A stretch of 64,000 bases of DNA. Origin: a virus. Position 1 is the stretch's first letter. Each line of letters starts with the position of its first letter. The notes under the pieces were generated by a model. The model was not told the DNA's origin. It saw only the letters and a list, made by a program, of their open reading frames with translations, and searched no databases. The stretch is from the IMG/VR virus record IMGVR_UViG_3300029822_000865, one strand, 5' to 3'. Shown here piece after piece: positions 11,396 through 46,421 of the stretch. A program made the position numbers and the translations under genes.

Positions 11396-11411
11396 AAAAT
11401 TCTTTTAACGG

Positions 11412-11595
11412 ACGTACACACATGTGAGTAGTGAGGGTGACAGCTTATATGTCTTGAATATTCCTGTTAGGTTGCATAGGTAGAACAGTTGAAATGATAT
11501 ACACTGCTACTGAAAAATTTATAAGTGTAAGACGAGGCAACATGTCGAGGATATTTTGAATTGTATATTAGAATTGTGAAAACATGTGTGTATGT
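11412..11595 (+). ncRNA. candidate rod-like structured RNA (~184 nt)
   Basis: 11412-11425 (ACGTACACACATGT) pairs with 11582-11595 (ACATGTGTGTATGT), 14 bp with one G-U. Nested helices: AATAT(T)CCT/AGGATATT, GTTGC/GCAAC, TACACT/AGTGTA. Confidence 0.35.
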
Positions 11596-11655
11596 AATAA
11601 CTTACTATTAAATTTGATTTGAAACTTAAAATTGAGTTGGGAGTTTTTAAGCTAT

Positions 11656-11678
11656 AGCGACTGTTAAGTCGCTTTTTT
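11656..11678 (+). terminator. Rho-independent terminator
   Basis: AGCGACT-GTTA-AGTCGCT followed by a T tract. Confidence 0.8.
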
Positions 11679-11739
11679 AATTAAAGACAATAAGTTAATA
11701 GGAAGTGTATCAGTATCGTTAAAAAAGGGGGTAGGGGCT

Positions 11740-12843: not shown

Positions 12844-12863
12844 ATGTGTGTTTTTAGAAAGGG

Positions 12864-13904: not shown

Positions 13905-13961
13905 GGAGATGATATAACTATGAAAATTAAGAAGACTTTAACAATCTGTGTTTTAGAGTGT

Positions 13962-13990
13962 TTGACGAGGAAGTTTTATTTAAGTATAAT
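13962..13990 (+). promoter_or_regulatory. sigmaA-type promoter
   Basis: TTGACG-17 nt-TATAAT. Confidence 0.75.
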
Positions 13991-14139
13991 ATTCAGTTTA
14001 TTTTTGATGTACTTGAATGACTTGCAGACCATCTGAATAAGGATGTTTGCAAGTTATTTTGTATATTAAACAAAGTCTGTTTTTAATGACATCCCAAGTA
14101 AGTAATTGTCGAAAAATTTGAGACAGGAGAGATAAAAAC

Positions 14140-14937
14140 ATGGCTTGTACTTGTAATAGTGGATTTAGGTATTTAAAAGGGAGACCTGTACCTTGTCCTA
14201 TATGTAATAAAGATGGAAAAGTAATTAACAGGGCATCTTTAGTGAAAATAGAGGGTATCAGCGAAGAAACCCGAGAAGTTGTTAAAATTGAAGAGCCACC
14301 TAAAACAATAGAACAAATATTGATGATACCTGACTGTTATGCGGATAAGAGATATTCAAGAACCGTTATTAATTCTATGCTAAGGGGTTTAACAGCAGAT
14401 AGATTATTTGACAAGTTAGACTCATTAATACTAAATACAAGAAACGGTCAAATTAGACAAGAGAATTGTTTCTTTTTTGCTCCACAGAAGTTTGACTTAG
14501 ATCTGTGGGCTTACACATTTCTAAAAGAATCTTACGAACATGGAAAATCTGTATTACCTTATATTTCCTTAGATGTACTTTGGGGAATTTGGCTATTAAC
14601 AAACGATACCCCAAACATAAAGCCAGAAGTCAAGGAATCACTTGATTACATGAGTGAATCATTGAATTTAACATGGTATGATTTATTGCTAGGGGATATA
14701 TTAGTCTTAAAATTACCTGCTGTGTACAACAATAAAACATTGACAATATTAATGAGCTTAGTCACACAAAGGGTATTGCATAATAAACCTACTTATTTAA
14801 TCTCATACTGGAAATCCGCAGTTGTTAAAAAATCAACGGGCGGCGCATTTATTTTTAAGGAAGATGAAAACTATGGTATGAATCAATTCACAATATATGA
14901 GCATTTAGGGTTTTTAGATGAAAGAAAAAGAGTTTAA
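14140..14937 (+). CDS. degenerate DnaC/IstB-like helicase-loader protein
   Basis: N-terminal Zn motif 'CTCNSG...PCPIC', 'IPDCYADKRY', Walker B-like 'DILVL', and 'LVTQRVLHNKPTYLIS' (DnaC-type R...KPT motif). No GKT. Confidence 0.5.
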   Translation: MACTCNSGFRYLKGRPVPCPICNKDGKVINRASLVKIEGISEETREVVKIEEPPKTIEQILMIPDCYADKRYSRTVINSMLRGLTADRLFDKLDSLILNTRNGQIRQENCFFFAPQKFDLDLWAYTFLKESYEHGKSVLPYISLDVLWGIWLLTNDTPNIKPEVKESLDYMSESLNLTWYDLLLGDILVLKLPAVYNNKTLTILMSLVTQRVLHNKPTYLISYWKSAVVKKSTGGAFIFKEDENYGMNQFTIYEHLGFLDERKRV

Positions 14938-19832: not shown

Positions 19833-21788
19833 GTGATTTTTTTGAGTAATTTATCGGAGACTAATATACGGTCACTGTCGGAAAAAGAAAAGGTACGATT
19901 AAAGCCAGACATATGGTTGCAATCACACGATCTTAATGCTGTTAAACACACTGTAGTTGAGGTTGTCGGTAACTCATTAGATGAAGCGTCTATGGGTTTT
20001 GGTAAAGTAATCGACATAACAAGGTATGCAGATCACTCATTAGAGGTAATAGACAGGGGTAGAGGCGTACCAATGGATTACAATGAAAAAGAGGGCAAAT
20101 ATAATTGGGAATTGATATTCACACAATTATTTGCAGGCGGTAAGTATAGTGGTACAGAATATGACATGTCAGTAGGGTTAAACGGAGTAGGACTTACGGT
20201 TGTACAGTTTGCGTCTACATACATGGAAGTAGAATCTAAACGTGGGGGAAAGACATATAGGATAAGTTTTAAAAAAGGCGATCCAGTTACAGAACTTAGC
20301 ACAACTAATTCAGATAATCCATCCGAAACAGGCACAAGGATACGTTGGCTACCTGATTTAGAAGTTTTCGACGAAATAGAAATAGATGATAATTGGTTTA
20401 TACCTACAATACAGGGGATGGCACTAGCATCGGGGGTCACTTTTAACTTTAAAGATGAAGTTACAGGTGAAACCGAAGTAATAGGTTCAAAAGATTACAA
20501 AGAAGTGTTAAAGGACAAGACCAAAGAAAAAGTAATTTCAGACTACTTGTTCACAGAGGGTAGCGGAACAACATCCGATAAACGAGATGGTAGTGATGCT
20601 TACAGGTACGAGTATAAAATAGCTTTTGCGTTTGTTCAAAATGGTGGTGAAGTTAGGTTCTTCCACAACATGGTTGAAGTTGACAAAGGAAGTCGTGGGG
20701 GAATACATTCAAAGTCTTTATTTCAAGGGGTAGGTAGAGGTTTAAGCGAATCACTGGACAAAGGATTGTATCTTAGAGACATCTACAATTTAGAGGGTAA
20801 TCTAAGTGCATTTATATTCACTCGCTCAACTTCAACATCCTATGACGGACAGGCAAAAAGAACAGTTTTAAACAAAGGGCTAGAAACGGTTCTCACAGAA
20901 GTGCTTAGTGTTGAGATTGGTAAGATATTTCAAAAGAATAAAGAAATTCGAGACTACTTTAAAAAAGTAATTGACGTACATGAAAAAGCGCAAGAGACAG
21001 CTGCAAAATTGAAAAAGCAAATTAAAAAGGCACAGGAAAAAATTGAGGAATTTGATAATTCTCCTATTGACAAGTTTGTTGATTGCAGAAGTGATTATAA
21101 TAGAGAGCTTTACATAGTTGAGGGAGATTCTGCTATGGGTTCTTGTAGACAAGCAAGAGACAGTGAGTTTCAAGCAATCACTTCCGTAAGAGGTAAAATT
21201 AAGAACTGTTTGAAGTCGGATGTTACACAAATACTTTCAAACGACATAATCTTGCGTTTAATAAAAATCATTAATGAGAACGTGGAATTAAGGGGAGTAG
21301 GCAGGGTATCATTTGGTGACATACGGGAGTGGGAAAAGTTTGTTATATGTACAGACGCTGACGAGGATGGTTTCCAGATTAGGACATTAATCTTGGCGTT
21401 TTTCTACAGACTATATCCTACATTATTAAGGCAAGGTAGAGTTTACATTGCTGAATCACCTTTATTTGAAATTGAAACAAGTAAGGAATCTTTGTTTGCA
21501 TATTCAAATGAAGAAAAGGACAGCATTGTAGAGAGTTTAAATGAAAAAGGGGTACGGCATACTGTGAATAGATCTAAAGGTCTTGGAGAAAATAATCCAG
21601 ACATGATGTGGCAGACTACAATGTGTCCAGATACCAGAAGACTTGTGAGGGTAGAGTATGATGAAGAACAATATGAGGAAATGACAGCATGGGTATTTGA
21701 CGCACTACTGGGTGATAATTTAGAAGAAAGAAAAACATTAATAGTGGATTATATGAAAAACATGAACTTGGCAGAGGTATTTTCCTAA
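19833..21788 (+). CDS. gyrB: type IIA topoisomerase B subunit (GyrB/ParE-like)
   Basis: GHKL motifs 'EVVGNSLDEA', 'DRGRGVP', 'GLNGVG'. TOPRIM motifs 'VEGDSA', 'VRGK', 'TDADEDG', 'RSKGLGE'. The start may be TTG at 19842. Confidence 0.95.
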   Translation: MIFLSNLSETNIRSLSEKEKVRLKPDIWLQSHDLNAVKHTVVEVVGNSLDEASMGFGKVIDITRYADHSLEVIDRGRGVPMDYNEKEGKYNWELIFTQLFAGGKYSGTEYDMSVGLNGVGLTVVQFASTYMEVESKRGGKTYRISFKKGDPVTELSTTNSDNPSETGTRIRWLPDLEVFDEIEIDDNWFIPTIQGMALASGVTFNFKDEVTGETEVIGSKDYKEVLKDKTKEKVISDYLFTEGSGTTSDKRDGSDAYRYEYKIAFAFVQNGGEVRFFHNMVEVDKGSRGGIHSKSLFQGVGRGLSESLDKGLYLRDIYNLEGNLSAFIFTRSTSTSYDGQAKRTVLNKGLETVLTEVLSVEIGKIFQKNKEIRDYFKKVIDVHEKAQETAAKLKKQIKKAQEKIEEFDNSPIDKFVDCRSDYNRELYIVEGDSAMGSCRQARDSEFQAITSVRGKIKNCLKSDVTQILSNDIILRLIKIINENVELRGVGRVSFGDIREWEKFVICTDADEDGFQIRTLILAFFYRLYPTLLRQGRVYIAESPLFEIETSKESLFAYSNEEKDSIVESLNEKGVRHTVNRSKGLGENNPDMMWQTTMCPDTRRLVRVEYDEEQYEEMTAWVFDALLGDNLEERKTLIVDYMKNMNLAEVFS

Positions 21789-22016: not shown

Positions 22017-23435
22017 ATGACTGAAGTTGGTATGTCAGAGACAATTGAAGATTTGCGGAAACGAATTGAGGTGTGTAATACTCTAAGCGTACTTTACGGT
22101 AGAAAAGTTATAGGCTATAAGGTGAAAAATAACATGATAGTATTTCCTGAGATTCGGTTAATCACTACTTTGGATGGTAGTTTTAAAATAAATTACGGTT
22201 TTTTATATACTTTGTACAATTCAGAATTACTTGTAATTGATCCAGGAAATAGTGTTGACGATATACTGGTAGTTGATCCTGTTAATTGCAAATTATTACA
22301 TACAAATATAAGGTTTAAAGGGCTTGTTAATTCTGTAGATATGCGGAACGTTTTATTTTTAACAGATGAGCATAACAACATGTGCTATTTAGACAGTAGG
22401 GGCGAGATTGAAAGCGTGATAAATATCGGGGGATGCGAAATATCAGCAAGACAAGAGGGCATCAAAAATGATAGGTATAGGTTGTACTTACAGAGGCATG
22501 ACACACTAGAAGTGTATAACGAGAAATTAGTGTGTTTAAAGAAGCTGAAAGGGTATTGTTTGATCGACTATGGCATAGATTATTTGGACAGTTATATCAC
22601 ATGGGACGAACTTGGAGAATTAAGTGTAAGAGTAAAAAATCTCGAAACTGGGCTATATAATGAGTTAGACAGTGAGCATAATTGTATTCATGATAAAGAG
22701 ATTGAATTACTTATTTTTTCAGATAAAGAAATGACAGTGAAAGCAAGCATAGACTGGGTGAAAAAAACAGATTTAAACAACTGGATAGTTGATAAATTAG
22801 ATAAAATAATAGAATACTTGAGAGAAATTGGGCGCACAATACCTAGAGATAAGCAGATAGCAGGATTTAATTTTGAAGTGTTATGGAAAAACAGTAACAC
22901 CTCAGTTACACATTATTTGCCGGTTGAGACATATATAAATTCTGAGTTTTGTCAGTTTACAAAGGATAATTTTGTTGTACATAAGGGTGATAATTTTAAG
23001 ATATTTCCTTATGGTTCAGATACTAGCATTGGGGAGTACAGAGGGAAACCTTTAGTTGGAAGTCTTTACTCTAAGGTTGTAACGTTAGGGTTTAACGGGA
23101 GCTTGTCGGGGGTATATGGTTCTTTACAAATCTACAAAGTTAAGGAAAATAACAGAAACGGCTTGATGGCTAATTGTAGGGTAATCGTACCTCCAATATA
23201 TCTCGATACTATTGCAAAGATATTTTCTCAAGAGGATCAAGATAATGCTGATGATGCTGCTGTTGTTGTACTGTTATATAAAGAAAATAAATTATTTGAC
23301 ATATATCATGTTGACAATAATATGTATCTACCCATAAATGCAAGTCAAATTGTTTGTGTTAATTTTAAAGACAATACAATCACTTATGAGACTGAAAACG
23401 GAGATGAGACCTACAGTTACAAGACTAAAAATTAA
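22017..23435 (+). CDS. hypothetical beta-rich protein between topoisomerase genes
   Basis: 472 aa. The N-terminus 'NTLSVLYGRKV' resembles the cap of the paralog family at 47.6-62.4 kb. Confidence 0.7.
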   Translation: MTEVGMSETIEDLRKRIEVCNTLSVLYGRKVIGYKVKNNMIVFPEIRLITTLDGSFKINYGFLYTLYNSELLVIDPGNSVDDILVVDPVNCKLLHTNIRFKGLVNSVDMRNVLFLTDEHNNMCYLDSRGEIESVINIGGCEISARQEGIKNDRYRLYLQRHDTLEVYNEKLVCLKKLKGYCLIDYGIDYLDSYITWDELGELSVRVKNLETGLYNELDSEHNCIHDKEIELLIFSDKEMTVKASIDWVKKTDLNNWIVDKLDKIIEYLREIGRTIPRDKQIAGFNFEVLWKNSNTSVTHYLPVETYINSEFCQFTKDNFVVHKGDNFKIFPYGSDTSIGEYRGKPLVGSLYSKVVTLGFNGSLSGVYGSLQIYKVKENNRNGLMANCRVIVPPIYLDTIAKIFSQEDQDNADDAAVVVLLYKENKLFDIYHVDNNMYLPINASQIVCVNFKDNTITYETENGDETYSYKTKN

Positions 23436-23548
23436 TTACTATGTTTTATCAGGGTAAGAACTGTATGAACAATAGGGGGTATTAAGGGTTATACATGATA
23501 ATTAATTGATACTTTAATTATATAGGTATATCAAGTTTTTTATTTAAG

Positions 23549-25684
23549 GTGGGTGAAGTAATGAGTTTAGCAAAACAGACAGTTGTAGACACAGATATAA
23601 GGGATGTTATTTATGGCAATTACATGCCTTATGCGGTAAAGGTCTTGTTGGACAGGGCTATACCGGACTTACAGGATGGGCTAAAACCCTCCCAGAGAAG
23701 AATTCTGTATACAATGTACAAGCAGAAGTTGTTCAATAACAAGACAAAAAGTGCCAACGTTGTTGGTGAAGTTATGAAGTTGCATCCTCACGGTGACATG
23801 GCTATATATGAGACTATGACTAGAATGACAGACAAATATGGTGCATGGAACTTTCCATTGATTTATGGAAAAGGAAACTTTGGTTCAGTAACATCTAATT
23901 TTGCGAGTGCAGCACCTCGGTATACAGAAGCTATGCTAGAGGAATACGCAAAGGAATATTTTGAATTTTTAGACTCAGTTGAAATGTTACCATCGTACGA
24001 TAACAAAAACACAGAACCAAAGGCGTTACCTGTCAATTTTCCTGCGGTTTTAGCAAATCCCACAGAGGGTATTGCGGTAGGGTTTGCAACATCAATTCCA
24101 TCCTTTAATGTGATTGACTTAATTGAGGCTACAAAGGCAACTGTACAGGGGGAAGAATTTAATTACATGGATTTAAGACCTGATTTTCCAACTGGTGGGA
24201 GTATTGTAACATTATATGAGAGTATGAAAGAGATATGGACAAAAGGTAAAGGCTCAATTCCTATATATGCTACATATTCAATTGAACAAAAAGGCAGATA
24301 TTTTGAAATGGTTGTTACGGAGTTACCTTATGGAGTTATAATTGAAAACGTTATAGATGGACTTTATAAGTTGGCAAAACGTGATAATTATTTTAAAACA
24401 CGATTTATTGAGGCGAGAGATGAATCTGGAATTAAAGGTTTCAAACTTGTTATTAAGTTTAATGGAGAACCTGATGCTATAGTTAACTATGTATTGAATA
24501 AATCAGACCTACAGAAGAATTATCCAGTAAATATTAATGTAATAGACGGGAATTCATTAAAACAAATAGGGGTAAGACACTTACTTAGAGAATGGTGTAA
24601 ATGGCGTAAAGAAATTGTAAGCAAACATTTTAAAATGCTTGTTGAAGATTTAGCGAATAAGCTGATGTTTTTACAAGCTTATATGAGTTTTATGTCAAAG
24701 GTTGATATTGATGAATGGGTTAAACTTGTTAAAAATGAGGACAATGATATTGTGCTTTACAACTATTTAAAGGCAAAGGTTACACCATTTAATCAACAGA
24801 TATTTGAGTTTTTATTGGACTTAAAAATAAAGGACATAAGGAAGTTTTCGCTCGAACAGAAAAAAGAGCAGTTAGTAAACCTAACAAAAGAGCTTCAACG
24901 TGCTGAGGAAATTGTACTTGATCCAGTACCTTTCATTGTTGATGAATTATCGGGGCTACAGGTTAAGTTTGAGAAAAAAGGGTATCGACAAAAGTCAGTT
25001 ATATATGACGAGTATCCCGAAGATTTGACACCTGTTACAGTTATTTATGAAAAACCAGTTGACAGGTCAAATGTTCAAATTGGCATCACGGAAGATTTGT
25101 TTATATACAAGAATAGTATGAACGCAAAAATGCCGTCTAACTGTGTATACAACGTAAACTGCAAGGCAAATGATGTTATAATGTTGTTCGCCTCAACTGG
25201 TGAAGTTTATAAGGTATACTTGGAAAATATAGAGTATACTACAGGTAAGAAAACAGGGGTATTCATTCTATCGGATTTTGGGATAGAGGATGCTGAAATA
25301 ATTGATATTAAGTTATGGAAACCGGACAGAACATATGTGTTTTGTGATGATGACGGCAGGGTTTGCATTGTTTCAAGTAATGAGTTTGCTACTGATAAGC
25401 GTAAGCAGAAGTACATACAAAAAGGATTTGCAGATGGGAATTATATTGGTTCAATAGAGTTTGCAGATTCAGACAGCGATAATGTGTATGTAAAAGTTAC
25501 ATCATTACTTGGAAAACAGGCGACGGTTAAATTCACAGATATACTGCGCAAGTCAAAGACAGCTAAAACTGTTGTATTTGCTGGAAAAATCGACAACATT
25601 AGAGATATGCAGCTTGTGGAATTAACTGGTGTTGTAAACTATAAGTCAGGAGAGGCGACTAATGTAGCGTTAGAGTTAGTATAA
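23549..25684 (+). CDS. gyrA: type IIA topoisomerase A subunit (GyrA/ParC-like)
   Basis: 'RAIPD..DGLKPSQRRILY', 'HPHGD', catalytic 'AAPRYT'. Short C-terminal domain with no GyrA box. The start may be ATG at 23561. Confidence 0.95.
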   Translation: MGEVMSLAKQTVVDTDIRDVIYGNYMPYAVKVLLDRAIPDLQDGLKPSQRRILYTMYKQKLFNNKTKSANVVGEVMKLHPHGDMAIYETMTRMTDKYGAWNFPLIYGKGNFGSVTSNFASAAPRYTEAMLEEYAKEYFEFLDSVEMLPSYDNKNTEPKALPVNFPAVLANPTEGIAVGFATSIPSFNVIDLIEATKATVQGEEFNYMDLRPDFPTGGSIVTLYESMKEIWTKGKGSIPIYATYSIEQKGRYFEMVVTELPYGVIIENVIDGLYKLAKRDNYFKTRFIEARDESGIKGFKLVIKFNGEPDAIVNYVLNKSDLQKNYPVNINVIDGNSLKQIGVRHLLREWCKWRKEIVSKHFKMLVEDLANKLMFLQAYMSFMSKVDIDEWVKLVKNEDNDIVLYNYLKAKVTPFNQQIFEFLLDLKIKDIRKFSLEQKKEQLVNLTKELQRAEEIVLDPVPFIVDELSGLQVKFEKKGYRQKSVIYDEYPEDLTPVTVIYEKPVDRSNVQIGITEDLFIYKNSMNAKMPSNCVYNVNCKANDVIMLFASTGEVYKVYLENIEYTTGKKTGVFILSDFGIEDAEIIDIKLWKPDRTYVFCDDDGRVCIVSSNEFATDKRKQKYIQKGFADGNYIGSIEFADSDSDNVYVKVTSLLGKQATVKFTDILRKSKTAKTVVFAGKIDNIRDMQLVELTGVVNYKSGEATNVALELV

Positions 25685-28549: not shown

Positions 28550-29134
28550 ATGGAGTGTGTGAATAAGGGGGATGCAGACATGGGGTTTAGTATAGCACAT
28601 GAATTCGTTCTAGGGGATATAGCACCAAATTATGTATTTGGGTGCACATGGGGTATATACTCAGACGAGACGTACAAAAGAAAAGGAATGTTGAATGACA
28701 TTAAAAAAGAGTTAGGGGCAGAAAACATACAGGTTGTGAGTGTTAAAAACGGGAAAATAGTTTTTATTACCCATGATGTATACGCTAAGGTTATGGGTTC
28801 ACTTGAAAGTAAAATCTCAGCAGTGAACGTTGAACAAGACAAAGTACTTTACAAAAAACAGCAAAGACTGGCAATTGAAGAATTTAAGAAGTACTTAAAG
28901 AGACAAAATAAAAGCACTAAAGCTATCATAGGGCTTTACTGTGTGAATAAAGTACCTGTGGTACGTGAATTAGTCGGAAACAATATGATGGAGTATCCTG
29001 CATTTAGATTGTCTTACAAACATGCAAAAGAAATTGCAGAGACAATGGGAATACAATTAAATTTTGATATTGAAAGTGCGAGGCTTTCATCGGGCATGAC
29101 AGCGGTAATAACACCTGTCATAATCAAAAGATAA
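28550..29134 (+). CDS. hypothetical protein
   Basis: 194-aa ORF. Confidence 0.65.
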   Translation: MECVNKGDADMGFSIAHEFVLGDIAPNYVFGCTWGIYSDETYKRKGMLNDIKKELGAENIQVVSVKNGKIVFITHDVYAKVMGSLESKISAVNVEQDKVLYKKQQRLAIEEFKKYLKRQNKSTKAIIGLYCVNKVPVVRELVGNNMMEYPAFRLSYKHAKEIAETMGIQLNFDIESARLSSGMTAVITPVIIKR

Positions 29135-29208
29135 ACTAAGCAAATCAGGTTAACACCCCTTTAAAAATAAACCTTGTCTTTTCGAGAAGAAAACCTGTAA
29201 ACACATAA

Positions 29209-29931
29209 ATGTTTACAGGTTTTCTGTTCGCACAACTAAATTTAATTAAACAATGTTGGTTAGAGATAAAGGTGGTGGTGTATATTTTTAACAAGACATT
29301 ATATAAAAAAGCTGAAAACGAGATAGTTGAAAAGGTTTCGTTACCTGAGCATATAAACAAGGTTATAATACCTGCATATCCTAAGAAGTATAAGGGCGAT
29401 GCAAACAAGGATATATCCGTAAGTGCGATAATTTGTCCTTTTCATGATGACACTGATCCGTCCTTTTCCTACGAGAAGAGAAGAAATTTTGCTAATTGTT
29501 TTGGTTGTTCGGTAGGCGGTAATGTTATAGGTATACACAGAGCCTTTATGAGTATACAATTAAAGAGCAAAGTAAGTTATGTGGATGCCTTGTTAGATTT
29601 GGCTAACATGTATAAGGTGGAAATTCCTAAGTTTATAGTAGATGAATCTGATACTTTAGAAATTATTGAGGAAGACATTAAAAGCAAGATAAAGGACTAT
29701 AAAGAAAGACGTAGCAAATTAATGGAAAAGGTAAGGCAGGACAAGACAAATGTAATCACAAACAAAAGATTATATAATTTAAACGAAAGGGTATCGCAGG
29801 CTAACTTAAAAGTGCATTGTCTTTTTGATATGATAATAATACATGGTAAAGAAATTGACTTAAAGAATTCAGAATTAAATGAAATATTCAAAAGATATTT
29901 AAAAGAACAAGGGGTATTAGACAATGAATAA
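29209..29931 (+). CDS. CHC2 zinc-finger (DnaG Zn-binding domain) protein without TOPRIM
   Basis: 'ICPFHDDTDPSF...CFGCSVGGNVI'. The rest is helical, with no EGxxD. The real start is probably a GTG at about 29272-29278. Confidence 0.8.
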   Translation: MFTGFLFAQLNLIKQCWLEIKVVVYIFNKTLYKKAENEIVEKVSLPEHINKVIIPAYPKKYKGDANKDISVSAIICPFHDDTDPSFSYEKRRNFANCFGCSVGGNVIGIHRAFMSIQLKSKVSYVDALLDLANMYKVEIPKFIVDESDTLEIIEEDIKSKIKDYKERRSKLMEKVRQDKTNVITNKRLYNLNERVSQANLKVHCLFDMIIIHGKEIDLKNSELNEIFKRYLKEQGVLDNE

Positions 29932-30835
29932 AAGAATCATACTGGGAGCAGATATATCGAAAAGCAGTACAGGGTGTTCGATATTGGATTTGGACTATAA
30001 TCCGTTATACACTGGATTTTTAATCAATAAGGATGAAAGAGACGTAACATCTGTAAGAAAAAGACTTATAAAGTATTTAGCTAAGTTAATTGACAAGTAT
30101 GACGTTACTGATGTTGTAATAGAAGATGTTTTTGGTTCGGTAAATTTTGACACTAGTAGGTTGTTAATAATACTGAATGAGTGTGCAGAAGACATAAAAA
30201 TGCTGTATCCCGATGTGGTGTTCGATATTTATAAAATACCTAACACAGAATGGAAATCTAAGTTATTAGCGATAGTAAATGAAGCTATTCGCATCACAGG
30301 TAGGCATAAAGAAGCAGTACAAGAAGCGTTAGGTCACATTTATAATATAACAGAGTTTTTAGAGATGGGTGTACCGGATGATGTATATGACTCATTGGGA
30401 ATAGCGTATACCCACGCCTATGAAATAAATAGTGGTGTTAACGTAATATCTACAGCAGAAAAAAATAATTACATAAAGAACTTTCGTTTAGGTCTTATTA
30501 GTTTTTATTTTTTGAATGAAAGTTTAAAAGATCAAATGTTAGAAACTTTAGATGATGGTTTTGAGCATTTAGAGGTCAAGTATAACAGGACTATAGAATC
30601 AACGGTAAAGGGGTTTTATAAAGGACATGAAAAAACAATGCTATGCTTAATAAACATTGGTAATTTTAAAAAACTAGGGTTGGACTTAGTACGGTACGGA
30701 ATAACAGATAGGGTAAAAAATGAAGAAAATTTATATTGTCTTGCATTACCAAAACAAGTAGAGCGTTCAATTTCAGGTCTTAATAACTTCAAAGATTGGA
30801 GGACTACACATGATAGAATTCAATGTACAAGATAG
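29924..30835 (+). CDS. RuvC-like Holliday-junction resolvase/nuclease
   Basis: 'ILGADISKSSTG', 'VVIED', 'WK', 'DDVYDSLGIA'. Confidence 0.75.
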   Translation: MNKRIILGADISKSSTGCSILDLDYNPLYTGFLINKDERDVTSVRKRLIKYLAKLIDKYDVTDVVIEDVFGSVNFDTSRLLIILNECAEDIKMLYPDVVFDIYKIPNTEWKSKLLAIVNEAIRITGRHKEAVQEALGHIYNITEFLEMGVPDDVYDSLGIAYTHAYEINSGVNVISTAEKNNYIKNFRLGLISFYFLNESLKDQMLETLDDGFEHLEVKYNRTIESTVKGFYKGHEKTMLCLINIGNFKKLGLDLVRYGITDRVKNEENLYCLALPKQVERSISGLNNFKDWRTTHDRIQCTR

Positions 30836-32090
30836 GATATTACTATCAAATTTAGGAATTTCGCAAGATCAACTAGAGGGGACTGTAGACGAGATTGTAG
30901 AAACACTGACTGATAAAGTAAGAGACTATAATATTTCATATGAAAAAGGCGAGGAAGAAGTATCAAACACGTTATATGATAGGCTGAGAGGGATTTTAAA
31001 AAAATTAAAGCCCGATGCAGACGTATTAAATGAAGTTTACGCTATGGATTATGGTGAAATTGATAAGGATAAAGATAAGTACTTAACTAAAATACCTATG
31101 AAGTCTATTGAAACGATAAAAGAAATGAGAGACTTAGATAGGTTTAGAAAAGAGTTGCAGGATTTAGTAAAACAAAAGGGTATCAGGGAAATTGAGTGTG
31201 TTAGTTCTTTCAAGTTAAATGGACATGCTGGTAGAGCGGCAATACATGACGGTAAAGTTGTTTCTGCAAGTACAAAAGGCAGGTATAAAAGGGGCAGAGA
31301 TACGACTAACCATTTAAGTGTTATACTTTCCGATAAAAATTTAACAAAATTAAGTAGTTTAGGATTGGTAGAATTAAGGGGGGAAATTGTACTAAACAAG
31401 CATGCTTTAAGTAAAGCCCGTAAATTTAACCCTGATATAAAGTCGGTATTTTCAGCAGTATCTTCTTTAATTAGACCTTACGCAACAGAAGATGAAATAA
31501 AGCTATTAAATTTTGTTGCATATGACATATATGGGGACAATGTGCATCAATTCAATACTTTAGAAGAAAAATTTGAGTATTTAGAATCTTTAGGTTTTGA
31601 AGTACCTTTATACGCCACGGCTACAATAGCGCCGTTTGGTTCTTTTGAGGATGACATAGAAGAAATACTAGATGTTTTAGGAGAGCATAAAGAGACGTAT
31701 CAATATGATACAGACGGTATTGTGACTTCAATAAATGATGTAGGCATATTTAACTCACTTGGAAGTGACACAACTATTAATCGAGGCAATGTTGCTTTAA
31801 AAATGGGTAAATGGCAACAGGAAGTGTATTCTTCAATAATTGAAAAAATAGAGTTTTGTCAAGGAAAGTCGAAGATTACACCAAAAGCAGTTGTTAGACC
31901 TGTTGTTGTGGAAAACGGAAATACTGTCAGGAATGTACCTCTGTATAATCTTGCAGCACTTGAATTACTTGAAGCGTATGAGGGTGAAACAATACACTTT
32001 AAATATGGTGGTGAAGCAGGGGTAATACCTTGTGACGCAGATGGTAATGTTATCGGAACATTATATAAATTAATGGAATTGGGGGAGTAA
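30810..32090 (+). CDS. NAD+-dependent DNA ligase, N-terminal half (Ia, adenylation and OB domains)
   Basis: Ia 'YNISY...SNTLYDRL', motif I 'FKLNG', 'ELRGEIV', 'FVAY', 'YDTDGIV', 'ALK', OB end 'GGEAGVIP'. Confidence 0.85.
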   Translation: MIEFNVQDRILLSNLGISQDQLEGTVDEIVETLTDKVRDYNISYEKGEEEVSNTLYDRLRGILKKLKPDADVLNEVYAMDYGEIDKDKDKYLTKIPMKSIETIKEMRDLDRFRKELQDLVKQKGIREIECVSSFKLNGHAGRAAIHDGKVVSASTKGRYKRGRDTTNHLSVILSDKNLTKLSSLGLVELRGEIVLNKHALSKARKFNPDIKSVFSAVSSLIRPYATEDEIKLLNFVAYDIYGDNVHQFNTLEEKFEYLESLGFEVPLYATATIAPFGSFEDDIEEILDVLGEHKETYQYDTDGIVTSINDVGIFNSLGSDTTINRGNVALKMGKWQQEVYSSIIEKIEFCQGKSKITPKAVVRPVVVENGNTVRNVPLYNLAALELLEAYEGETIHFKYGGEAGVIPCDADGNVIGTLYKLMELGE

Positions 32091-32091
32091 G

Positions 32092-32586
32092 GTGATACAT
32101 GCTGTTGAAAACAAAGAGATATATCATTTCACTAACAGTAAAGACATAGCTGAATTTAGACATGTGAAACCTAAACGTGAATATTCACAAGCATCAGGAT
32201 ATGGGGTGTATTTTACACCGATGTGGGACAAAGGAATGGTGAAGTACGGTTGTCATGCAAAGTACTGCTACAGGTGTACATTTAGTGGTGTAATATTAAA
32301 CTTGGGAGAATACGATTCAATGTTCTTTGATCAATCCGGCACGTTAGCACACAGTTGTTCTTTTGTAACAAAAAATTTTAAACTACGTTTAGAAAATTCA
32401 CCTCAATTACGTGAACCTGATCTTATTCTTGGAACAATTTCCTCAAAGGCGTATAAATGGCTAGTAAACAATAATATACAGGCAGTACATGGCATGGAGT
32501 ATTGGGGATATGCTTGTTCTGAATTCGCAGTAATAGATACAAAATGTGTTAAGATACTTGAAATAATAAAATTAAGTAACAGTTAG
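32092..32586 (+). CDS. ADP-ribosyltransferase-fold protein (candidate)
   Basis: 'IYHFT...F...GYGVYFT' and C-terminal 'SEFAVID' fit the H-Y-E ART pattern. Confidence 0.45.
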   Translation: MIHAVENKEIYHFTNSKDIAEFRHVKPKREYSQASGYGVYFTPMWDKGMVKYGCHAKYCYRCTFSGVILNLGEYDSMFFDQSGTLAHSCSFVTKNFKLRLENSPQLREPDLILGTISSKAYKWLVNNNIQAVHGMEYWGYACSEFAVIDTKCVKILEIIKLSNS

Positions 32587-32705
32587 GCGTAGTGTTTTTA
32601 GGGTGTGTAACAGTATTAAAAAAGATAAGTACAATTATTTATTATAATAAATACCGCTAATGTGTTTAGGCTGGTAAAATGTGAATAGTAGGGAGTTGTA
32701 CTTAC

Positions 32706-33983
32706 ATGAATGAGATACTGAAAGAAAGTGTAAAAGAACGAGTTGATTTATTTGAGAATGCCTTTACAGATTTTGAGGTTGTTAAACCTTTTATCTCACT
32801 TGAAAAAGTAAATGTAGAGGATATTATTGTACCGCCAAACAGAGCAAGGAAACAGGGGTTAAAAGGTTTAAAAGCATCTGTAGCCCAACTAGGGGTATTA
32901 GTACCACCTATTCTTATGCGCACAGAAAATAAAAAGAAATATATATTAATTAACGGTATAAGGCGTGTACATGCGGCATTAAAGAATGGGTTTACAGAAC
33001 TACAATCACTGGTTTATAATTTTGATGACTCAGCCAAAGCAAAGAAAGCTATTCCATATTTAGAACTGATACTTAACCAATATGAACCTTACACAATAGG
33101 TGAAGTGTGGGATACATCCCAGTTTCTTGAATCAAAAATGGTTAATTTTTCACCTGAGTTAATAGAGTATTTACTTAATCTAAGACCAGGGGAATACACA
33201 AAACTGGTTGAGGTAATGAGGGCATCAGAATCAGACATGATTGACATTCGGGATCAGCTTTTAGAGGGCACTATCACCATAAACCAAGCTTATAAAAAAC
33301 TAGACATGATCAGAAAAAAGGTCACTAGACAGGAATTACTAGATCAGAAAGAAGAGTTAATGTTCAGTGTAGGTGAAACAGGCGGATTTGATGAAGCTGT
33401 TAAGGTTGTAGAAAATTCTACTGAACCTATGAAACGTGAGAGATTAGAGGATGATGAAATAGCTGCATTATTAAATCTAGCTAACTGTAATATGGAGACT
33501 CTTGATCTTTCAGAAATAGAAGAAATGGACAGGACTTCGGAAATCCGTCAAAATAAGAAACAAGTATCACGAGACAGAAAACCAGTTGATCCTGCACTTA
33601 GAAAAGCAAGAATGATAAAAGATGGATACTCTTGCCAGTGTTGCCTTGATATAAGCGGTGAAAAGCATATGTATGTGCTTGACTTCCACCACGTTGTACC
33701 TGTTAGTTTGGGTGGTGAGGACTCGATGGAAAACGGAATCACACTGTGTTTAAATTGCCATCAATTAGTGCATTTGTATGCCTCGGGGGATTTATTTCTG
33801 GGCAAAATAGAAGATAGGGATGAGATAGTGAAGTTTAAGAAAGTGCTTACACTTGGGAATACTATTATAGACGCAATGAAGAAGTTACACATGCCGAAAG
33901 AAGAGTTTAAAAAACTGGAAAATCCACACTTTGTAGCAAGAAAATTTCCTGGTTACATAAAGCAACAACTTGAAAAAGCTTGA
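32706..33983 (+). CDS. ParB N-terminal domain fused to HNH endonuclease
   Basis: 'LKASVAQLGVLVPPIL...YILINGIRRVHA' (ParB GxxR) and 'CQCC...HHVVPVSLGGEDSMENGITLCLNCHQLVH' (HNH). Confidence 0.85.
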   Translation: MNEILKESVKERVDLFENAFTDFEVVKPFISLEKVNVEDIIVPPNRARKQGLKGLKASVAQLGVLVPPILMRTENKKKYILINGIRRVHAALKNGFTELQSLVYNFDDSAKAKKAIPYLELILNQYEPYTIGEVWDTSQFLESKMVNFSPELIEYLLNLRPGEYTKLVEVMRASESDMIDIRDQLLEGTITINQAYKKLDMIRKKVTRQELLDQKEELMFSVGETGGFDEAVKVVENSTEPMKRERLEDDEIAALLNLANCNMETLDLSEIEEMDRTSEIRQNKKQVSRDRKPVDPALRKARMIKDGYSCQCCLDISGEKHMYVLDFHHVVPVSLGGEDSMENGITLCLNCHQLVHLYASGDLFLGKIEDRDEIVKFKKVLTLGNTIIDAMKKLHMPKEEFKKLENPHFVARKFPGYIKQQLEKA

Positions 33984-33998
33984 TAAGGGGGAGTTAAA

Positions 33999-34877
33999 AT
34001 GGTTTACACTTTCAGTGATTACGTTATTAAGTATGAAAAATACTTGGATAAGCGAATGGTTAACTTACTTAACTGTAATAAATACTGCGATTGTGGCAGC
34101 GAACTTACGTTAACTGAAGAAAAAACAAGTATTGTTTGTAGTAATGAATTTTGTGCATACAAGGTGGCAAAAAGGTTAGTACAAATGTGTAAAGATTTGA
34201 TAATAATAGGTATTGGTGACGTAAATGCGTTAAAGATTGTAAACCATTTTGAACTTCAATCCCCTTTGCAGTTACTTGCATATAATCCGGACGAAGATGG
34301 GGTTTTAGCAGATGACATATCTATGGAAAAGTCGATAGATTTCTACAATCAAGTGCAGGCTAAAGAGCTTCAATTATGGGAATATTTGAGGGCGGCAAAC
34401 ATCCCTGCTATTAGGGATAATGCAATGAAAATTATGAAAGGTTTAGACTCTTTCACTGAACTTTTTGAAACGTTAGATACCTATGGAATTTCTTTTATTG
34501 AACAGCAATTAGGGCTTATTGAAAAAGAAGATTATAACATTTCTGCCATAAAGGTATTTGAGGGACTTTTACAAGAGCGTGAAGTTTTAGAGCATGTGGA
34601 AAATTACCTCAATGTTGTGAGCGTAACAAAAGAGATTAGTATAGTAATATCAAGGGGTATTTTGAATTATCCATCCAAAGAGGCATTTATAAAGACATTA
34701 AACGGTGTATATAGGGGTAAGGTGTATATTAACTTAATAAAAACTTTATCGTTAAACGTTGACATACTCTTGTGGGAAGGAATAGGTGACCTTACAAGTA
34801 AAGTTGTTAAAGCACAAAAGTTAGGAATACCAATAATGACTAGCAGTGAGTTTCTAAACTATCTTAATAATAAATAG
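33999..34877 (+). CDS. NAD+-dependent DNA ligase, C-terminal half (Zn finger, HhH, BRCT)
   Basis: 'CDCGSEL...CSNEFC', HhH 'IIGIGDVNALKI', BRCT 'SKVVKAQKLGIPIMTSSEFL'. Confidence 0.8.
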   Translation: MVYTFSDYVIKYEKYLDKRMVNLLNCNKYCDCGSELTLTEEKTSIVCSNEFCAYKVAKRLVQMCKDLIIIGIGDVNALKIVNHFELQSPLQLLAYNPDEDGVLADDISMEKSIDFYNQVQAKELQLWEYLRAANIPAIRDNAMKIMKGLDSFTELFETLDTYGISFIEQQLGLIEKEDYNISAIKVFEGLLQEREVLEHVENYLNVVSVTKEISIVISRGILNYPSKEAFIKTLNGVYRGKVYINLIKTLSLNVDILLWEGIGDLTSKVVKAQKLGIPIMTSSEFLNYLNNK

Positions 34878-34906
34878 AAAATATTTGTTATTGGGGTGGA
34901 AATATA

Positions 34907-36751
34907 ATGTTGATTGGACAGGAATATTTTGATTATTTCAACAAGTCGATAAATGCGGTAAAAACTGATAACGTGCAGGAAGTAATTTCAAGATTCGTTA
35001 CAGGTATTATAAGACCAGACTTTAGGGAATTATCGTCTATTGAGAAACTATACTTTAAGTTAATAAATGATACTTTTGACATTTCCGAAAAGGAGCAGTT
35101 AGATTTATTACAGAATAAAGACAGATATGTTCCGTCAGAAGTTAGAAAAGCAGGGGGGGAGTATTTTACCCCTGAGACATTAGCTCAATATGGTAGAGAG
35201 ATTGTGGGACAGTATATAGATTTAAAAGATTGCCATGTTTGGGACGTTTCGTGCGGAACAGGGAATTTGTTAAGAAGTGCTAAAGACCTTAATCCAAGTA
35301 AGGTTTATCTTAGTACATTAAATAAATCTGACATCGACTTAATTAGAAATACTGAGTTTTATTCTGACGAAGTCACAATGTTTAATTGTGACTTTTTGTG
35401 TTCTATTGATTATGATAGTGTTAACACAGGGTTTTTAGACACTTTACCAGATAAGTTACAAAAGGCAGTAAGAAATAATGAAAAGATACTGTTTTTCTTC
35501 AATCCACCGTTTAAGAGCTTTGCACCAGAAACAACAACAAGTCTATGGATGAAAGAATTAGGATTAGGAAAGGCAACAGGAGATTTGTATACCCAATTTA
35601 TATTTAAAGTGGTAGACTTTATAAGGGTTCATAATTTAACGAATTCAGTTATGGGGATATACTCTCCGGCAACTTATTTAAAAGACAACACGGGATTGCT
35701 GTCATACATCCAGAAGTATATGGATTTTCAAGAGGGTATCGTTTTCAACAGTAATGAGTTTGCGGACACCACATCCAGTGAGTTTTGGGGTATAGTATTT
35801 GTTGCCTACACTCATAAACAACTTGAGGTAAACAAGATAGGCGATGGTTGCATAAAACGTATTGGACTTGACAGTAAAGGCAATGTTAGAGAAGTGTCGA
35901 AAATGGAGTTGGGTTTATTTAAGACAAAAGAAAGACGGATTAGTGAGTGGGCGAAGTCGAAAGAAGCTGACTATTATGTGCAAATGCCAGCTTATAAATT
36001 CTTTAACAGCAAACCAGTTAAAATTCTTAAAGCAAGTGTAAATAGTTTTGCGTACACATCTTTTGTAGACACTCTTGTAAAGAATGGAAAAGCAATTATA
36101 TCTACCAGACCAATAACTTTTGAGGGATACATAGATATAACAAAGGAGAATTTGGAAAGAGCAATCACCATGTTTGCGGCGCATAGGTCAATTACCGACA
36201 GGGGTGACTTTGGATTAAATATGTCTACCCCAATAGAGCCTGAAAGAGAAGTTGAAGAAGAATTGTTACGTGATTTTTTGATATTTAGTTTGTTTGATTT
36301 AAAGAGTTATCAGTTTTCAGCGAGGGTAGACACTGGGAATGTGGAAAATGTAAGAAATACCATGTTTTATATGGACACGAATAGGATTTTAAAAGCCGCA
36401 GAAGATCAGGGTTTAGACTTGTTAACTACTGATTATGGGAAGTATGGACATAAGAATGTATTTTATGATAAGTATGTGAAAAACGCTATACTAAAGGGAG
36501 TATCCCCCGAAGCTCAGGAGTTGTACGATTACTGTTGTAAAGCGAACATAGACACTCTAAAGTATCGGACAAAGATGCCTGAAAACTACCATATGAACTG
36601 TTGGGATGCAGGCTGGGTTCAAATCCGATATATGCTAAAAGAGCTAAAACTCGAAGAAATAGAGCGTGGGTATTTTGAGAGATTGATAGAGTTTAAAAAG
36701 AAACTTGCAAATGATGTTATTAACTTAGGAGTGTATAGTCATGCTAATTAG
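34907..36751 (+). CDS. N6-adenine DNA methyltransferase (gamma-type motif order)
   Basis: 'GGEYFTP', motif I 'WDVSCGTGNLL', motif IV 'FNPPF'. Confidence 0.85.
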   Translation: MLIGQEYFDYFNKSINAVKTDNVQEVISRFVTGIIRPDFRELSSIEKLYFKLINDTFDISEKEQLDLLQNKDRYVPSEVRKAGGEYFTPETLAQYGREIVGQYIDLKDCHVWDVSCGTGNLLRSAKDLNPSKVYLSTLNKSDIDLIRNTEFYSDEVTMFNCDFLCSIDYDSVNTGFLDTLPDKLQKAVRNNEKILFFFNPPFKSFAPETTTSLWMKELGLGKATGDLYTQFIFKVVDFIRVHNLTNSVMGIYSPATYLKDNTGLLSYIQKYMDFQEGIVFNSNEFADTTSSEFWGIVFVAYTHKQLEVNKIGDGCIKRIGLDSKGNVREVSKMELGLFKTKERRISEWAKSKEADYYVQMPAYKFFNSKPVKILKASVNSFAYTSFVDTLVKNGKAIISTRPITFEGYIDITKENLERAITMFAAHRSITDRGDFGLNMSTPIEPEREVEEELLRDFLIFSLFDLKSYQFSARVDTGNVENVRNTMFYMDTNRILKAAEDQGLDLLTTDYGKYGHKNVFYDKYVKNAILKGVSPEAQELYDYCCKANIDTLKYRTKMPENYHMNCWDAGWVQIRYMLKELKLEEIERGYFERLIEFKKKLANDVINLGVYSHAN

Positions 36752-37727
36752 AGAGGGTATAATGAGTATACAAGAAGACAATCAATTTGTTTTGTTGAAT
36801 TGTTCTTACTCAAAAATGTCATTGATGATATTTGATTACTACAAACAAAGATATAATGCGTCTACTTCTTCATATAACTTAATAGAAGTAGAGAGTATTA
36901 CTACCGCAGGGGAAACTAACATTGTAGAATCTAAGCATTTAATAGAGGATATGTGGTTAGTATATATTCATGTGGACAGGTGTAGTGATATTAAAAAGGT
37001 GTTGGCGAAATTAACTTATTCTGAAAATGCTATTTATCTTTTTTCCACAGCTAAATATGCGAAATTCTTACAGCTAGAAAAAGAATTACGAGATGTGCTG
37101 CCTAAAAAATCAACTTGTTTAAAACTCTCATTAAATTGGGTTAATAAGGACAGTATAAAGTATTTGTTACAGATGTTCATAAAAAGTATAGATCCAAAAG
37201 CAGAGTATCATGTTTTAAATAATTTAAAGTATGACACAGAGATTTTTTATGACTTTCTGTTTGAGTGTCGGAAATATGATCATGTTGAGCATAGTGTAGT
37301 AAAGAAATTTAGGAGTATAAACACAAACTCTTGGATACTTTTTAGAAGTGTAATAGACGGTCGTACTGGAACAGAGCGTAAAGATAAAAAATTTATTAGA
37401 CAGTATAAGTTTTTTATCGAGCAAGAGGGGTTTAACAGAGCGCACACTATATTAAAGAACATGTTTAAAGACTTGTTGTTTGTAAAAAAGCTATACCAGG
37501 AGGGGTATATTTGTAGCGTAGCACCAATAGATTATGATAACCTAAGAGAACAGTTTCCTATAGAATTAAAGTACCTATCAATACATAAAATATCAAAATA
37601 CATGAGGGTATTAAAAGGGTTATCTTATATAGAGATAATAAGTTTTTATGTCACATTAAATAATAGTAAGTCAGAGACAGCATTACTGCATTCGCTTTAC
37701 ACAATGTCTAGGAGGGGTCACATATGA
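36741..37727 (+). CDS. hypothetical protein, possibly clamp-loader delta (HolA)-like
   Basis: 328 aa. Size and layout are only loosely HolA-like; no diagnostic motif. Confidence 0.3.
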   Translation: MLIREGIMSIQEDNQFVLLNCSYSKMSLMIFDYYKQRYNASTSSYNLIEVESITTAGETNIVESKHLIEDMWLVYIHVDRCSDIKKVLAKLTYSENAIYLFSTAKYAKFLQLEKELRDVLPKKSTCLKLSLNWVNKDSIKYLLQMFIKSIDPKAEYHVLNNLKYDTEIFYDFLFECRKYDHVEHSVVKKFRSINTNSWILFRSVIDGRTGTERKDKKFIRQYKFFIEQEGFNRAHTILKNMFKDLLFVKKLYQEGYICSVAPIDYDNLREQFPIELKYLSIHKISKYMRVLKGLSYIEIISFYVTLNNSKSETALLHSLYTMSRRGHI

Positions 37728-44462: not shown

Positions 44463-46421
44463 ATGTGGGCAAACATATTAAAGCGGGTTCGTACAGAATC
44501 TGGAGCAGTTTTAGGGTATCAAGTACGTGTTAATAAAACGGCAAGAGAGTATAAGGTAATGTATTTACCTGTTAAAAAGTGCATAGAATTGACAAAAAAC
44601 AAGACTATACTTAATGCGATAGTTGTTGTACAAGAAAATGGAAAGGAGCATTTAAGAGCTAAACTTGGTACATTTCCAGAGGGTATCGTAAAAGTAAAAG
44701 CTAAGACAGTATCCTATGCAAATAAACAGAATAAACCAAAAGAAGCTAATTTTGTTATAGAGCCTACGCATGATAAACCTATTGAACAGACTACAGAAGA
44801 AGTTAAGGAAGAATCTAATCAAACACAGGCAATTAACTTTGAGGAAATATATACTGAAAAGGTTGGTGGAAGTATTACTAATAGCTCATTTGAGCGTTCA
44901 AGTAAGATAAAAGATAAGCATAGCGACTTAACAGTTGAACAGAAGCTTGTGAAGTCAATGATCACGTTGCGTAAACTAAGACCTTTTTACGGTATATTAT
45001 ATCAAGGGCTAAAACGTGTTGAAAAAGACGTGCCTACAATGGCGGTTAGTATTGATACTTTATTTATAAATCCTGAATTTGTTGCAGAGTTGACTTTTTC
45101 AGAATTGCTGTTTGTTAATATGCATGAATTACTTCACATATCGCTGATGCACAATGAAAGAGTAAAAGGTAAAAATCTTAGAGTATATAATCTTGCTTGT
45201 GATTTAATAATTAACAAAATGCTTGTTGAGGAATTTAATTTAGACCGAAAAAATGTAACAAGAGTAACAGGATTAGGGGGCAGGACAGTAGATGTACAAA
45301 TACCAAAAGGTTTATTACTAGTTGAATCAATAGACACTTCTGTTGAAAATGCAGAAACATTGTATGAAAAGTTAATGAAAGAGCTTAAAAAGCAACAACA
45401 AAATGGTGGTGGGAATTCAGTAAAATTACCTAACGGAGAAAGCGTTGACAGTAATGACCAACAAGGTGGTTTAGGGAATGACTTACAACCGGATATGCAA
45501 GAGAACGAAGAGGATAATGGAAGTGGACAGAGCGAAGGACAAGATGGAACAGATGACGAAAACAGTAACAGTGATGGAAACGGCGAAGAACAAAATGGAA
45601 TAGCTGACGAAAACGGTAACAGTGATGAAAGCGGTATTGGGAATAATGAAAATGATTGTAACCAAAGTGGAGAAGATAAACACGATAAGGATCAAAACAC
45701 TAACAAATCCTCAAAATCAAATAAGGGTTCAAAATTTGATCCTAAGACTAAATTAAAAGATAAGGAACGTGTTAAAAAAATAAAAGACAAGATAAGAGGT
45801 TGCTTAACAAATGCTAAATTAGCTGGAAGTCAAGCTGGAAATATTGAGCGACTAATAGAAGATTCAATAGCACCTGTCGTTGACTGGAAGAAGCTTGTTA
45901 AAAGGTATCTAACAGCTACGGCAGAAAGATATTTAAGTCTTACAAGCCCTGATAAGAGATATATACACAGTGGATTAATGTTACCTGGAGAAGCAAAGAT
46001 CGAACCTAGTATGCTAGAAAGGGTAAAAGTTTGCATTGACACGTCTGGTTCGATAGCAGATACTGATTTAGGGGTATTTTACAAGCAACTAAACCAGTTA
46101 TTGAAATTGTACAAGATGGATGCGGAAGTTATTTATTGGGATACAAAAGTTGCACAGACAGGAATGTTTAGCGACATCAAGGAGTTCGCTAAGATCAAAG
46201 CCGCTGGGGGTGGGGGCACTGATGTAAATTGTGTATTCGAGTATTTCGACAGTAAGGAATGTAAAATCAAACCTTATGTAATAATCATATTCACAGATGG
46301 GTACTTTTACACTGACATAAAGAAATGGCGTTACAGTAAGAATGTAATTTGGGTAATTCAAGGAAATGAGAGAGCGTTTAAACCCCCTTTTGGTAAGGTA
46401 GCAAAATTTATTAGGCAGTAA
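44463..46421 (+). CDS. DUF2201-like HExxH domain plus VWA-like protein
   Basis: 'PTMAV....LFINPEF', 'HELLH', 'YNLACD..IN', acidic linker, 'VDWK', MIDAS 'IDTSGSI', 'GGGGTD', 'IFTDGY'. Confidence 0.85.
   Translation: MWANILKRVRTESGAVLGYQVRVNKTAREYKVMYLPVKKCIELTKNKTILNAIVVVQENGKEHLRAKLGTFPEGIVKVKAKTVSYANKQNKPKEANFVIEPTHDKPIEQTTEEVKEESNQTQAINFEEIYTEKVGGSITNSSFERSSKIKDKHSDLTVEQKLVKSMITLRKLRPFYGILYQGLKRVEKDVPTMAVSIDTLFINPEFVAELTFSELLFVNMHELLHISLMHNERVKGKNLRVYNLACDLIINKMLVEEFNLDRKNVTRVTGLGGRTVDVQIPKGLLLVESIDTSVENAETLYEKLMKELKKQQQNGGGNSVKLPNGESVDSNDQQGGLGNDLQPDMQENEEDNGSGQSEGQDGTDDENSNSDGNGEEQNGIADENGNSDESGIGNNENDCNQSGEDKHDKDQNTNKSSKSNKGSKFDPKTKLKDKERVKKIKDKIRGCLTNAKLAGSQAGNIERLIEDSIAPVVDWKKLVKRYLTATAERYLSLTSPDKRYIHSGLMLPGEAKIEPSMLERVKVCIDTSGSIADTDLGVFYKQLNQLLKLYKMDAEVIYWDTKVAQTGMFSDIKEFAKIKAAGGGGTDVNCVFEYFDSKECKIKPYVIIIFTDGYFYTDIKKWRYSKNVIWVIQGNERAFKPPFGKVAKFIRQ

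Follow-up and report, generated by a model that had tools for sequence, protein, structure and literature searches.

Introduction

Two-subunit NAD-dependent DNA ligases are already known from phages. The annotation of phage T5 names subunits A and B of an NAD-dependent DNA ligase (PMC3632103), and in the T5-like Providencia phage PR1 two adjacent genes encode ligase proteins of 333 and 248 amino acids (aa), for which a domain search places the adenylation and OB domains on one chain and the Zn finger and BRCT domain on the other. Both PR1 chains are contained in the PDB entries 9hu3 and 9i5i (PR1 subunit B matches 9hu3_B with E 2e-158), the former under the title 'PR1 phage heterodimeric DNA ligase in complex with 21-mer nicked DNA containing phage nick sequence'. 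The N chain of PR1 stops 8 residues past the 'VIP' of motif VI, and its C chain starts at the Zn finger.

Here we describe a comparable arrangement in a stretch of 64,000 nucleotides (nt) of viral DNA from the IMG/VR record IMGVR_UViG_3300029822_000865, referred to below as the window. Two genes of the window, ligN (30810..32090) and ligC (33999..34877), both on the + strand, encode the N-terminal and C-terminal halves of a LigA-type ligase, and as in T5 and PR1 the break lies 3′ of OB motif VI and 5′ of the Zn finger. The original prediction, made from the sequence of the window, implied that such a split was new. T5 ligA/ligB and the PR1 heterodimer are precedents, and the family described here adds a variant to them. 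What distinguishes this family is a conserved gene for a ParB/Noc-HNH nuclease, which lies between or beside the two ligase genes.

Results

Judging from sequence profiles and a structure model, the products of ligN and ligC are likely to be the partner chains of a heterodimeric DNA ligase, probably dependent on NAD+, that serves the phage replication module. We favour a two-chain ligase because the two halves complement each other on phrog_3869, the profile of full-length phage LigA (656 positions), with the N half aligned to positions 9-375 (E 5e-44) and the C half to positions 397-654 (E 3e-11). LigN (426 aa) consists of a domain Ia (~aa 30-90), a nucleotidyl-transferase domain (aa 94-331) and an OB domain (aa 344-405), the composition that had been proposed for this open reading frame (ORF). 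The central domain matches Pfam DNA_ligase_aden above the Pfam cut-off (aa 94-331, E 1e-17), and DNA_ligase_OB is matched weakly at aa 344-402, below the cut-off (E 0.003). Lys135, encoded by the codon at 31212-31214, is the predicted acceptor of adenosine monophosphate (AMP). Residue conservation was read from 22 diverse N-half sequences, all of which share K135 (motif I), E188/R190/E192 (motif III, RGE), D302/G303 (motif IV, DG), K331 (motif V), G400-V405 (motif VI) and Y56/D57, the 'YD' of domain Ia that aligns with the Ia motif of LigA. A tail of 20 aa, which contains an invariant Gly, follows 3′ of motif VI ('GGEAGVIP').

LigC (292 aa) begins with a 28-aa N-terminal extension, followed by a C4 Zn finger (C30, C32, C47 and C52), an HhH domain (~aa 53-203) and a BRCT domain (~aa 208-292). 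As a single sequence LigC has no Pfam match, and its domains were recognised through phrog_3869 and a profile of its own family. In the PDB, this family profile matches the Zn-finger/HhH part of LigA (8ak4 residues 415-547, E 4.5e-6; 2owo residues 402-515). BRCT is matched by 14 of the 92 family members and the LigA Zn-finger family by 8, and the four Zn cysteines are the sole invariant columns across all 92 sequences. The AlphaFold2 model of LigC, built on the family alignment, has a mean predicted local distance difference test (pLDDT) score of 95.4. Its best fold match is 9hu3_B, followed by LigA from E. coli, Deinococcus and Thermus, and in the same fold search the last ~80 residues match BRCT domains. 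Profile and fold searches thus bear out the LigA-type domains that had been read into both ORFs, including the Zn finger, HhH and BRCT domains of ligC. Some relatives of LigC are longer. For P0131, P0136, P0137, P0139, P0141, P0143 and P0171 (360-473 aa), the match to the profile is broken into two or three segments, which suggests large insertions in or 3′ of the HhH domain, and P0129 (534 aa) and P0130 (448 aa) are extended at the N terminus by 160-246 aa.

Each half has a ribosome-binding site of its own, as originally noted. On the + strand, the Shine-Dalgarno sequence GGAGG (30798..30802) lies 7 nt 5′ of the ligN ATG, and GGGGGAG (33987..33993) lies 5 nt 5′ of the ligC ATG. Two complete genes, again with their own start codons and ribosome-binding sites, stand between ligN and ligC. 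For introns, an Rfam scan of 29000-37000 at E<=1 returned a chance miRNA match only, and no Hint/intein domain is among the Pfam matches of the region. Promoter and terminator scans gave no signal above chance.

Comparison with related elements revealed that the split is not confined to the window. The 120 best N-half relatives among 5.8 billion proteins (37-64% identity) are all 391-479 aa long, although proteins of as many as 746 aa were eligible. With the C half, an exhaustive profile search returned 2335 clusters at 50% identity, 117 of them at E<1e-30. Judged by length and match position, no fused LigA is among the best 150 of these 2335 clusters, which are mostly stand-alone proteins of ~280-350 aa starting at the Zn finger, and none of the 150 representatives is a fusion of ligC with the nuclease gene or with ligN. 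We sorted 84 related loci by gene order using profiles of ligN, ligC and the nuclease gene. The order of the window, ligN, ParB-HNH, ligC (class A), is found in 29 of the 84, and 10 more begin in this order and are then cut off or run out of range. In class B, with 9 loci and one further locus that is cut off, ParB-HNH and ligC are followed by ligN ~3 kilobases (kb) downstream. The 35 loci of class C have ligN without ligC or the nuclease gene in the available flanks, which reach at most 8 kb per side and in about half of these loci measure <5 kb on at least one side.

In a ligN tree from a quick maximum-likelihood search, the split-ligase family forms a single clade (support of 100 in the Shimodaira-Hasegawa-like approximate likelihood ratio test, SH-aLRT). 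Since every deep branch of this tree includes loci with the order ligN-nuclease-ligC, and the permuted order forms one nested clade, the former is probably ancestral to the family. Pairwise ratios of nonsynonymous to synonymous substitution rates (dN/dS) are 0.02-0.16 for ligN, 0.03-0.28 for ligC and 0.003-0.15 for the nuclease gene, and for ligN and ligC such values indicate strong purifying selection. LigC diverges faster than LigN, with 28-30% vs 33-38% identity in the same genomes. A complete relative, G001 (IMG/VR, 179,785 bp, terminal repeats, CheckV 100%), contains one ligN, one ligC and one nuclease gene. An ATP-dependent ligase domain was not found in this genome, and the split ligase is the only ligase that it encodes. 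The window likewise has one copy of each of the three genes.

Members of the family are uncultivated phages, sampled from gut, rumen and fermenters, with contigs of 130-410 kb. Close cultured relatives were not found by blastn against phages, and tblastn against cultured phages returned only fused ligases of ~25% identity in jumbo phages. Neither a pattern scan of prokaryote genomes nor IMG/VR scans with single proteins detected a relative, and an alignment-based scan of IMG/VR returned no contig beyond the three already identified. In locus L009 the nuclease gene is present as two ORFs of 321 and 106 aa (1412-2712), and L052 has two ORFs each for the nuclease gene and for ligC (10073-14792); these may be assembly errors or real breaks.

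The nuclease gene of the window (32706..33983, + strand; Shine-Dalgarno GGGAG at 32691-32695, + strand) encodes a protein of 425 aa with Pfam matches to ParB_N (E 2e-8) and HNH (E 7e-9). ParB/Noc-like N-terminal and DNA-binding domains, with the motif 'NGIRRVHAA', span ~aa 29-220, and an McrA-type HNH domain spans ~aa 296-359. The family profile matches Noc/ParB across the N-terminal and the adjoining DNA-binding domain (7nfu residues 19-182) as well as the HNH domains of E. coli McrA (6ghc, E 1e-11) and of IscB. An AlphaFold2 model reached a moderate overall pLDDT of 67.7, with 70-90 in the domains, and its first ~220 residues match structures of ParB, Noc and KorB over ~200-225 residues. Across 38 homologues, R48, G84, R86/R87 and N124 as well as H328/H329, N343, H352 and H356 of the HNH domain are invariant or nearly so. 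The ParB/Noc-like domains suggest that the protein is loaded onto DNA in a sequence-specific manner.

A single copy of the nuclease gene, located solely at the ligase locus, is found in the window and in three IMG/VR genomes. It is present in 39 of the 40 loci that have ligC in range, the sole exception being truncated, and in class B it stays beside ligC though ligN lies ~3 kb downstream. Its pairwise identities track those of ligN and ligC. A full-length relative was not found in cultured phages. The ENA contig UOOR01000056 from a fermentation metagenome (155,736 bp; locus L008) is a near-identical copy of the window, in which 1 of 1281 nt differs in ligN and 5 of 879 in ligC. Identity to this strain is otherwise 99.5-99.9%, but a patch of 184 nt in the HNH domain (33645..33828, + strand) has 40 differences (~22%), mostly synonymous, and from this contrast is read as a localised recombination tract. 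A similar contrast, with the divergence confined to the nuclease gene, is seen between L024 and L026. The window encodes two further HNH proteins, one of 652 aa (44463-46421, phrog_1314 HNH endonuclease) directly 3′ of the gene for a 1477-aa DNA polymerase and one of 410 aa (60481-61713, phrog_119/2214), neither of which has paralogy with the ParB-HNH gene beyond the HNH motif.

The second gene in the gap (32092..32586, + strand; Shine-Dalgarno GGGGGAG at 32081-32087, + strand) starts with GTG one base 3′ of the ligN stop and encodes 164 aa. The original prediction placed an ADP-ribosyltransferase (ART)-like gene and a ParB-HNH gene between the ligase halves; the latter is supported by its Pfam matches, while the ART label goes back to a protein atlas, in which a language model scores the product at 0.95 for likeness to ART-PolyVal/AcrIF11 clusters (189-194 shared features, 5 of the 10 best matches agreeing), and the product has no Pfam or PHROG match. 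It is possibly an ADP-ribosyltransferase of the ART-PolyVal/AcrIF11-like kind. Only two homologous clusters exist for this ORF, and among the 84 loci it occurs in the window and L008 only, with the 61%-identical relative L009 lacking it; therefore, it is a recent accessory outside the conserved unit. The slots that flank the nuclease gene carry different accessory ORFs in different phages. In the permuted clade, locus L024 (2861-7828) has an isochorismatase-family (nicotinamidase-like) gene between the nuclease gene and ligC and a gene for a non-specific DNA/RNA endonuclease between ligC and ligN. Slot genes of L024 and the ART-like ORF of the window may both be seen as NAD-related accessory genes in ligase slots.

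The window is part of a phage-like genome with ~34% G+C, a strong positive GC skew and long ORFs that are essentially all on the + strand. According to Pfam and PHROG annotation of their neighbours, the ligase genes sit within a replication module that contains topoisomerase II subunits, a DnaB-like helicase, a primase Zn-ribbon protein and a RuvC-like resolvase, together with an N6-methyltransferase-like protein and the 1477-aa DNA polymerase. The primase and RuvC genes are also conserved near the ligase locus in relatives. A topoisomerase II large-subunit-like gene (19833-21788) and an A-subunit-like gene (23549-25684) are separated by an ORF of 472 aa without a PHROG match (22017-23435). 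Upstream of the A-subunit gene, the first 500 nt of L008 differ from window positions 23049-23550 at 349 of 500 positions in an ungapped comparison, the rest of L008 being near-identical; this is probably an indel or a different end sequence.

Discussion

Our comparison of the window with its relatives suggests that the two-chain LigA-type ligase is very probably functional. LigN would bind the cofactor through domain Ia and carry out adenylyl transfer at Lys135, and it also contains the OB domain; LigC would clamp the DNA with its HhH domain, which is flanked by the Zn finger and the BRCT domain. Both would be translated separately from their own ribosome-binding sites, probably from one transcript, and we infer that they associate non-covalently around the nick, like the PR1/T5-type heterodimer. 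The LigN tail and the structured 28-aa extension of LigC are likely docking elements. As for the nuclease gene, it would most likely descend from an ancient site-specific endonuclease gene that lodged at the linker between the OB domain and the Zn finger in the family ancestor, thereby splitting the ligase gene, and that has since been retained as an active, single-copy resident. Such an ancient insertion is the simplest origin of the split.

Several observations count against this interpretation. Motif I reads KxNG instead of KxDG in all 22 aligned LigN members, and the 'TRGDG..GED' segment of LigA is replaced by 'T(R/K)GR...GRD' in the family. Moreover, the positions that align with LigA Arg277, Lys290 and the upstream aromatic pair of Ia vary among LigN proteins (E. 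coli LigA numbering, with Tyr22/His23 for the pair). Some of these positions are variable in PR1 and fused phage ligases as well. Because of these departures from the LigA motifs, we treat ligase activity of LigN/LigC as likely rather than certain, and the choice of cofactor as uncertain. Furthermore, ligN stands without ligC within the flanks in 35 of the 84 loci (flanks of at most 8 kb, often far less), so tight co-expression of the two halves is not universal.

The nuclease gene bears on how the split arose. Typical homing endonuclease genes are sporadic and recently arrived. Their pattern of sporadic presence and an uninterrupted target allele was not seen among the loci compared here, in which 39 of 40 with ligC carry the nuclease gene and the 120 best N-half relatives are unfused; by this measure, the gene is unlike a typical sporadic homing endonuclease gene. 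The protein may be an old resident homing endonuclease or a working partner of the ligase. In the latter case it would nick the DNA at specific sites, and the two-piece ligase would either seal these nicks or leave them open. The locus would then form a nick-and-seal module, comparable to the strand-specific nicks that T5-like phages carry and that are repaired early in infection (PMC3517423). We regard this as unlikely, although it is the best placed of the alternatives. The constant company of ligC, even in class B, the single copy at the ligase locus, the co-divergence with the ligase halves at a dN/dS of 0.003-0.15, the predicted sequence-specific loading and the 'phage nick sequence' on which the PR1 ligase was crystallised according to the title of 9hu3 all speak for a partner. 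However, the linkage could be plain vertical inheritance within a syntenic replication module, in which primase and RuvC genes are conserved as well. Moreover, T5-like phages lack such a gene beside their ligase genes, and a nuclease fused to either half was not seen among the 150 C-half representatives. A more far-reaching version, built on the analogy with nicked phage genomes, is that ligN, ParB/Noc-HNH and ligC are one unit, in which a CTP-gated, site-specific HNH nickase would set programmed nicks in the genome and the ligase would seal or spare them at set times, the split enabling this control; this we consider speculative and less probable than a nickase partnership as such.

It is improbable that LigN alone is a minimal ligase or adenylyl-transferase, with LigC as an independent DNA-binding/BRCT scaffold and no obligate heterodimer. 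Such an independence of the halves would fit the 35 loci without ligC in the flanks, the clade in which the halves are permuted and the faster divergence of the C half. The HhH domain of LigA is needed for nick binding, which counts against LigN acting alone. In addition, the solved PR1 enzyme is a heterodimer on DNA, G001 has exactly one of each half, and the two halves co-diverge under similar constraint.

A re-purposed pair, catalytically altered or inactive, with ligation lost through the family-wide motif departures, appears very improbable. The change from Asp to Asn in motif I and the several other LigA positions that are not conserved would agree with it. Against it, the Lys that would accept AMP is invariant, as are motifs III-VI and the 'YD' of Ia, and the complete 180-kb relative, which has its own replication machinery, encodes no other ligase. 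Finally, a recent decay into a pseudogene, or halves rejoined by an intron, an intein or recoding, for which only the bare fact of the gene interruption could be cited, can practically be dismissed, since the split is old and family-wide, dN/dS is low, G001 and the window have one copy of each half, Rfam introns and intein domains were not found in the region, and the halves are separated by two complete genes, each with a start and a ribosome-binding site of its own. The preference of the original prediction for a two-subunit ligase over decay is therefore upheld by the split as the sole form among the closest relatives, purifying selection, the invariance of the Zn ligands and of most nucleotidyl-transferase motifs, the sole ligase of G001 and the solved heterodimer 9hu3.

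With this family, the two-subunit NAD ligase is extended from T5-like phages to a large and very diverse group of uncultivated phages, while the known chemistry of ligases is unchanged. Hundreds of natural LigN/LigC pairs with distinct putative docking tails offer material for studies on the assembly of a clamp-shaped ligase from separate chains. The ParB/Noc-HNH gene provides a test case for a broader question: can a gene-splitting endonuclease settle in for good under selection, or even turn into a partner of the enzyme it divided? If it were such a partner, the nick-and-seal unit would be the enzymatic basis of a T5-style nicked genome in a large group of uncultivated phages.

Compared with the T5-type enzymes, the family shows no special similarity at the level of sequence. 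LigN scores higher with phrog_3869 than with the T5-type profile phrog_3359 (5e-44 vs 1e-24) and matches bacterial LigA structures at 1e-27 and 9hu3_A at 3e-20, and LigC scores both profile types about equally. PR1 is placed outside the family in the ligN tree, on long branches. Because LigN is closer to full-length LigA profiles than to the T5-type and PR1 falls outside the family, it is more likely that the split occurred independently of that in T5/PR1, at the same inter-domain linker. The two systems also differ in that the PR1 ligase genes are adjacent without a nuclease gene, whereas the nuclease gene lies between the halves here. Moreover, the LigN tail and the 28-aa N-terminal extension of LigC are both missing from PR1, and the KxNG form of motif I marks the family.

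With bacterial LigA (E. coli 2owo, S. aureus 3jsl and D. radiodurans 8ak4), the family shares the set and order of domains, the catalytic Lys, motifs III-VI and the C4 Zn finger. Bacterial LigA is one chain, however, and the two chains described here differ from it in the Asp to Asn change of motif I and in several positions that contact the cofactor or AMP. Genes in pieces are also known from other phages. In Aeromonas phage Aeh1, a free-standing homing endonuclease gene is reported to have left a gene in pieces, nrdA-a/mobE/nrdA-b (Friedrich et al. 2007). T4 gene 39/60 with mobA is another gene split by a homing endonuclease gene. As in these cases, an essential gene of DNA metabolism appears to be split by an endonuclease gene, with no intron or intein and with a product expected as two chains. 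In contrast to them, the nuclease here combines ParB/Noc and HNH domains, and its gene is single-copy, co-diverges with the ligase halves under purifying selection and is present in 39 of 40 ligC loci.

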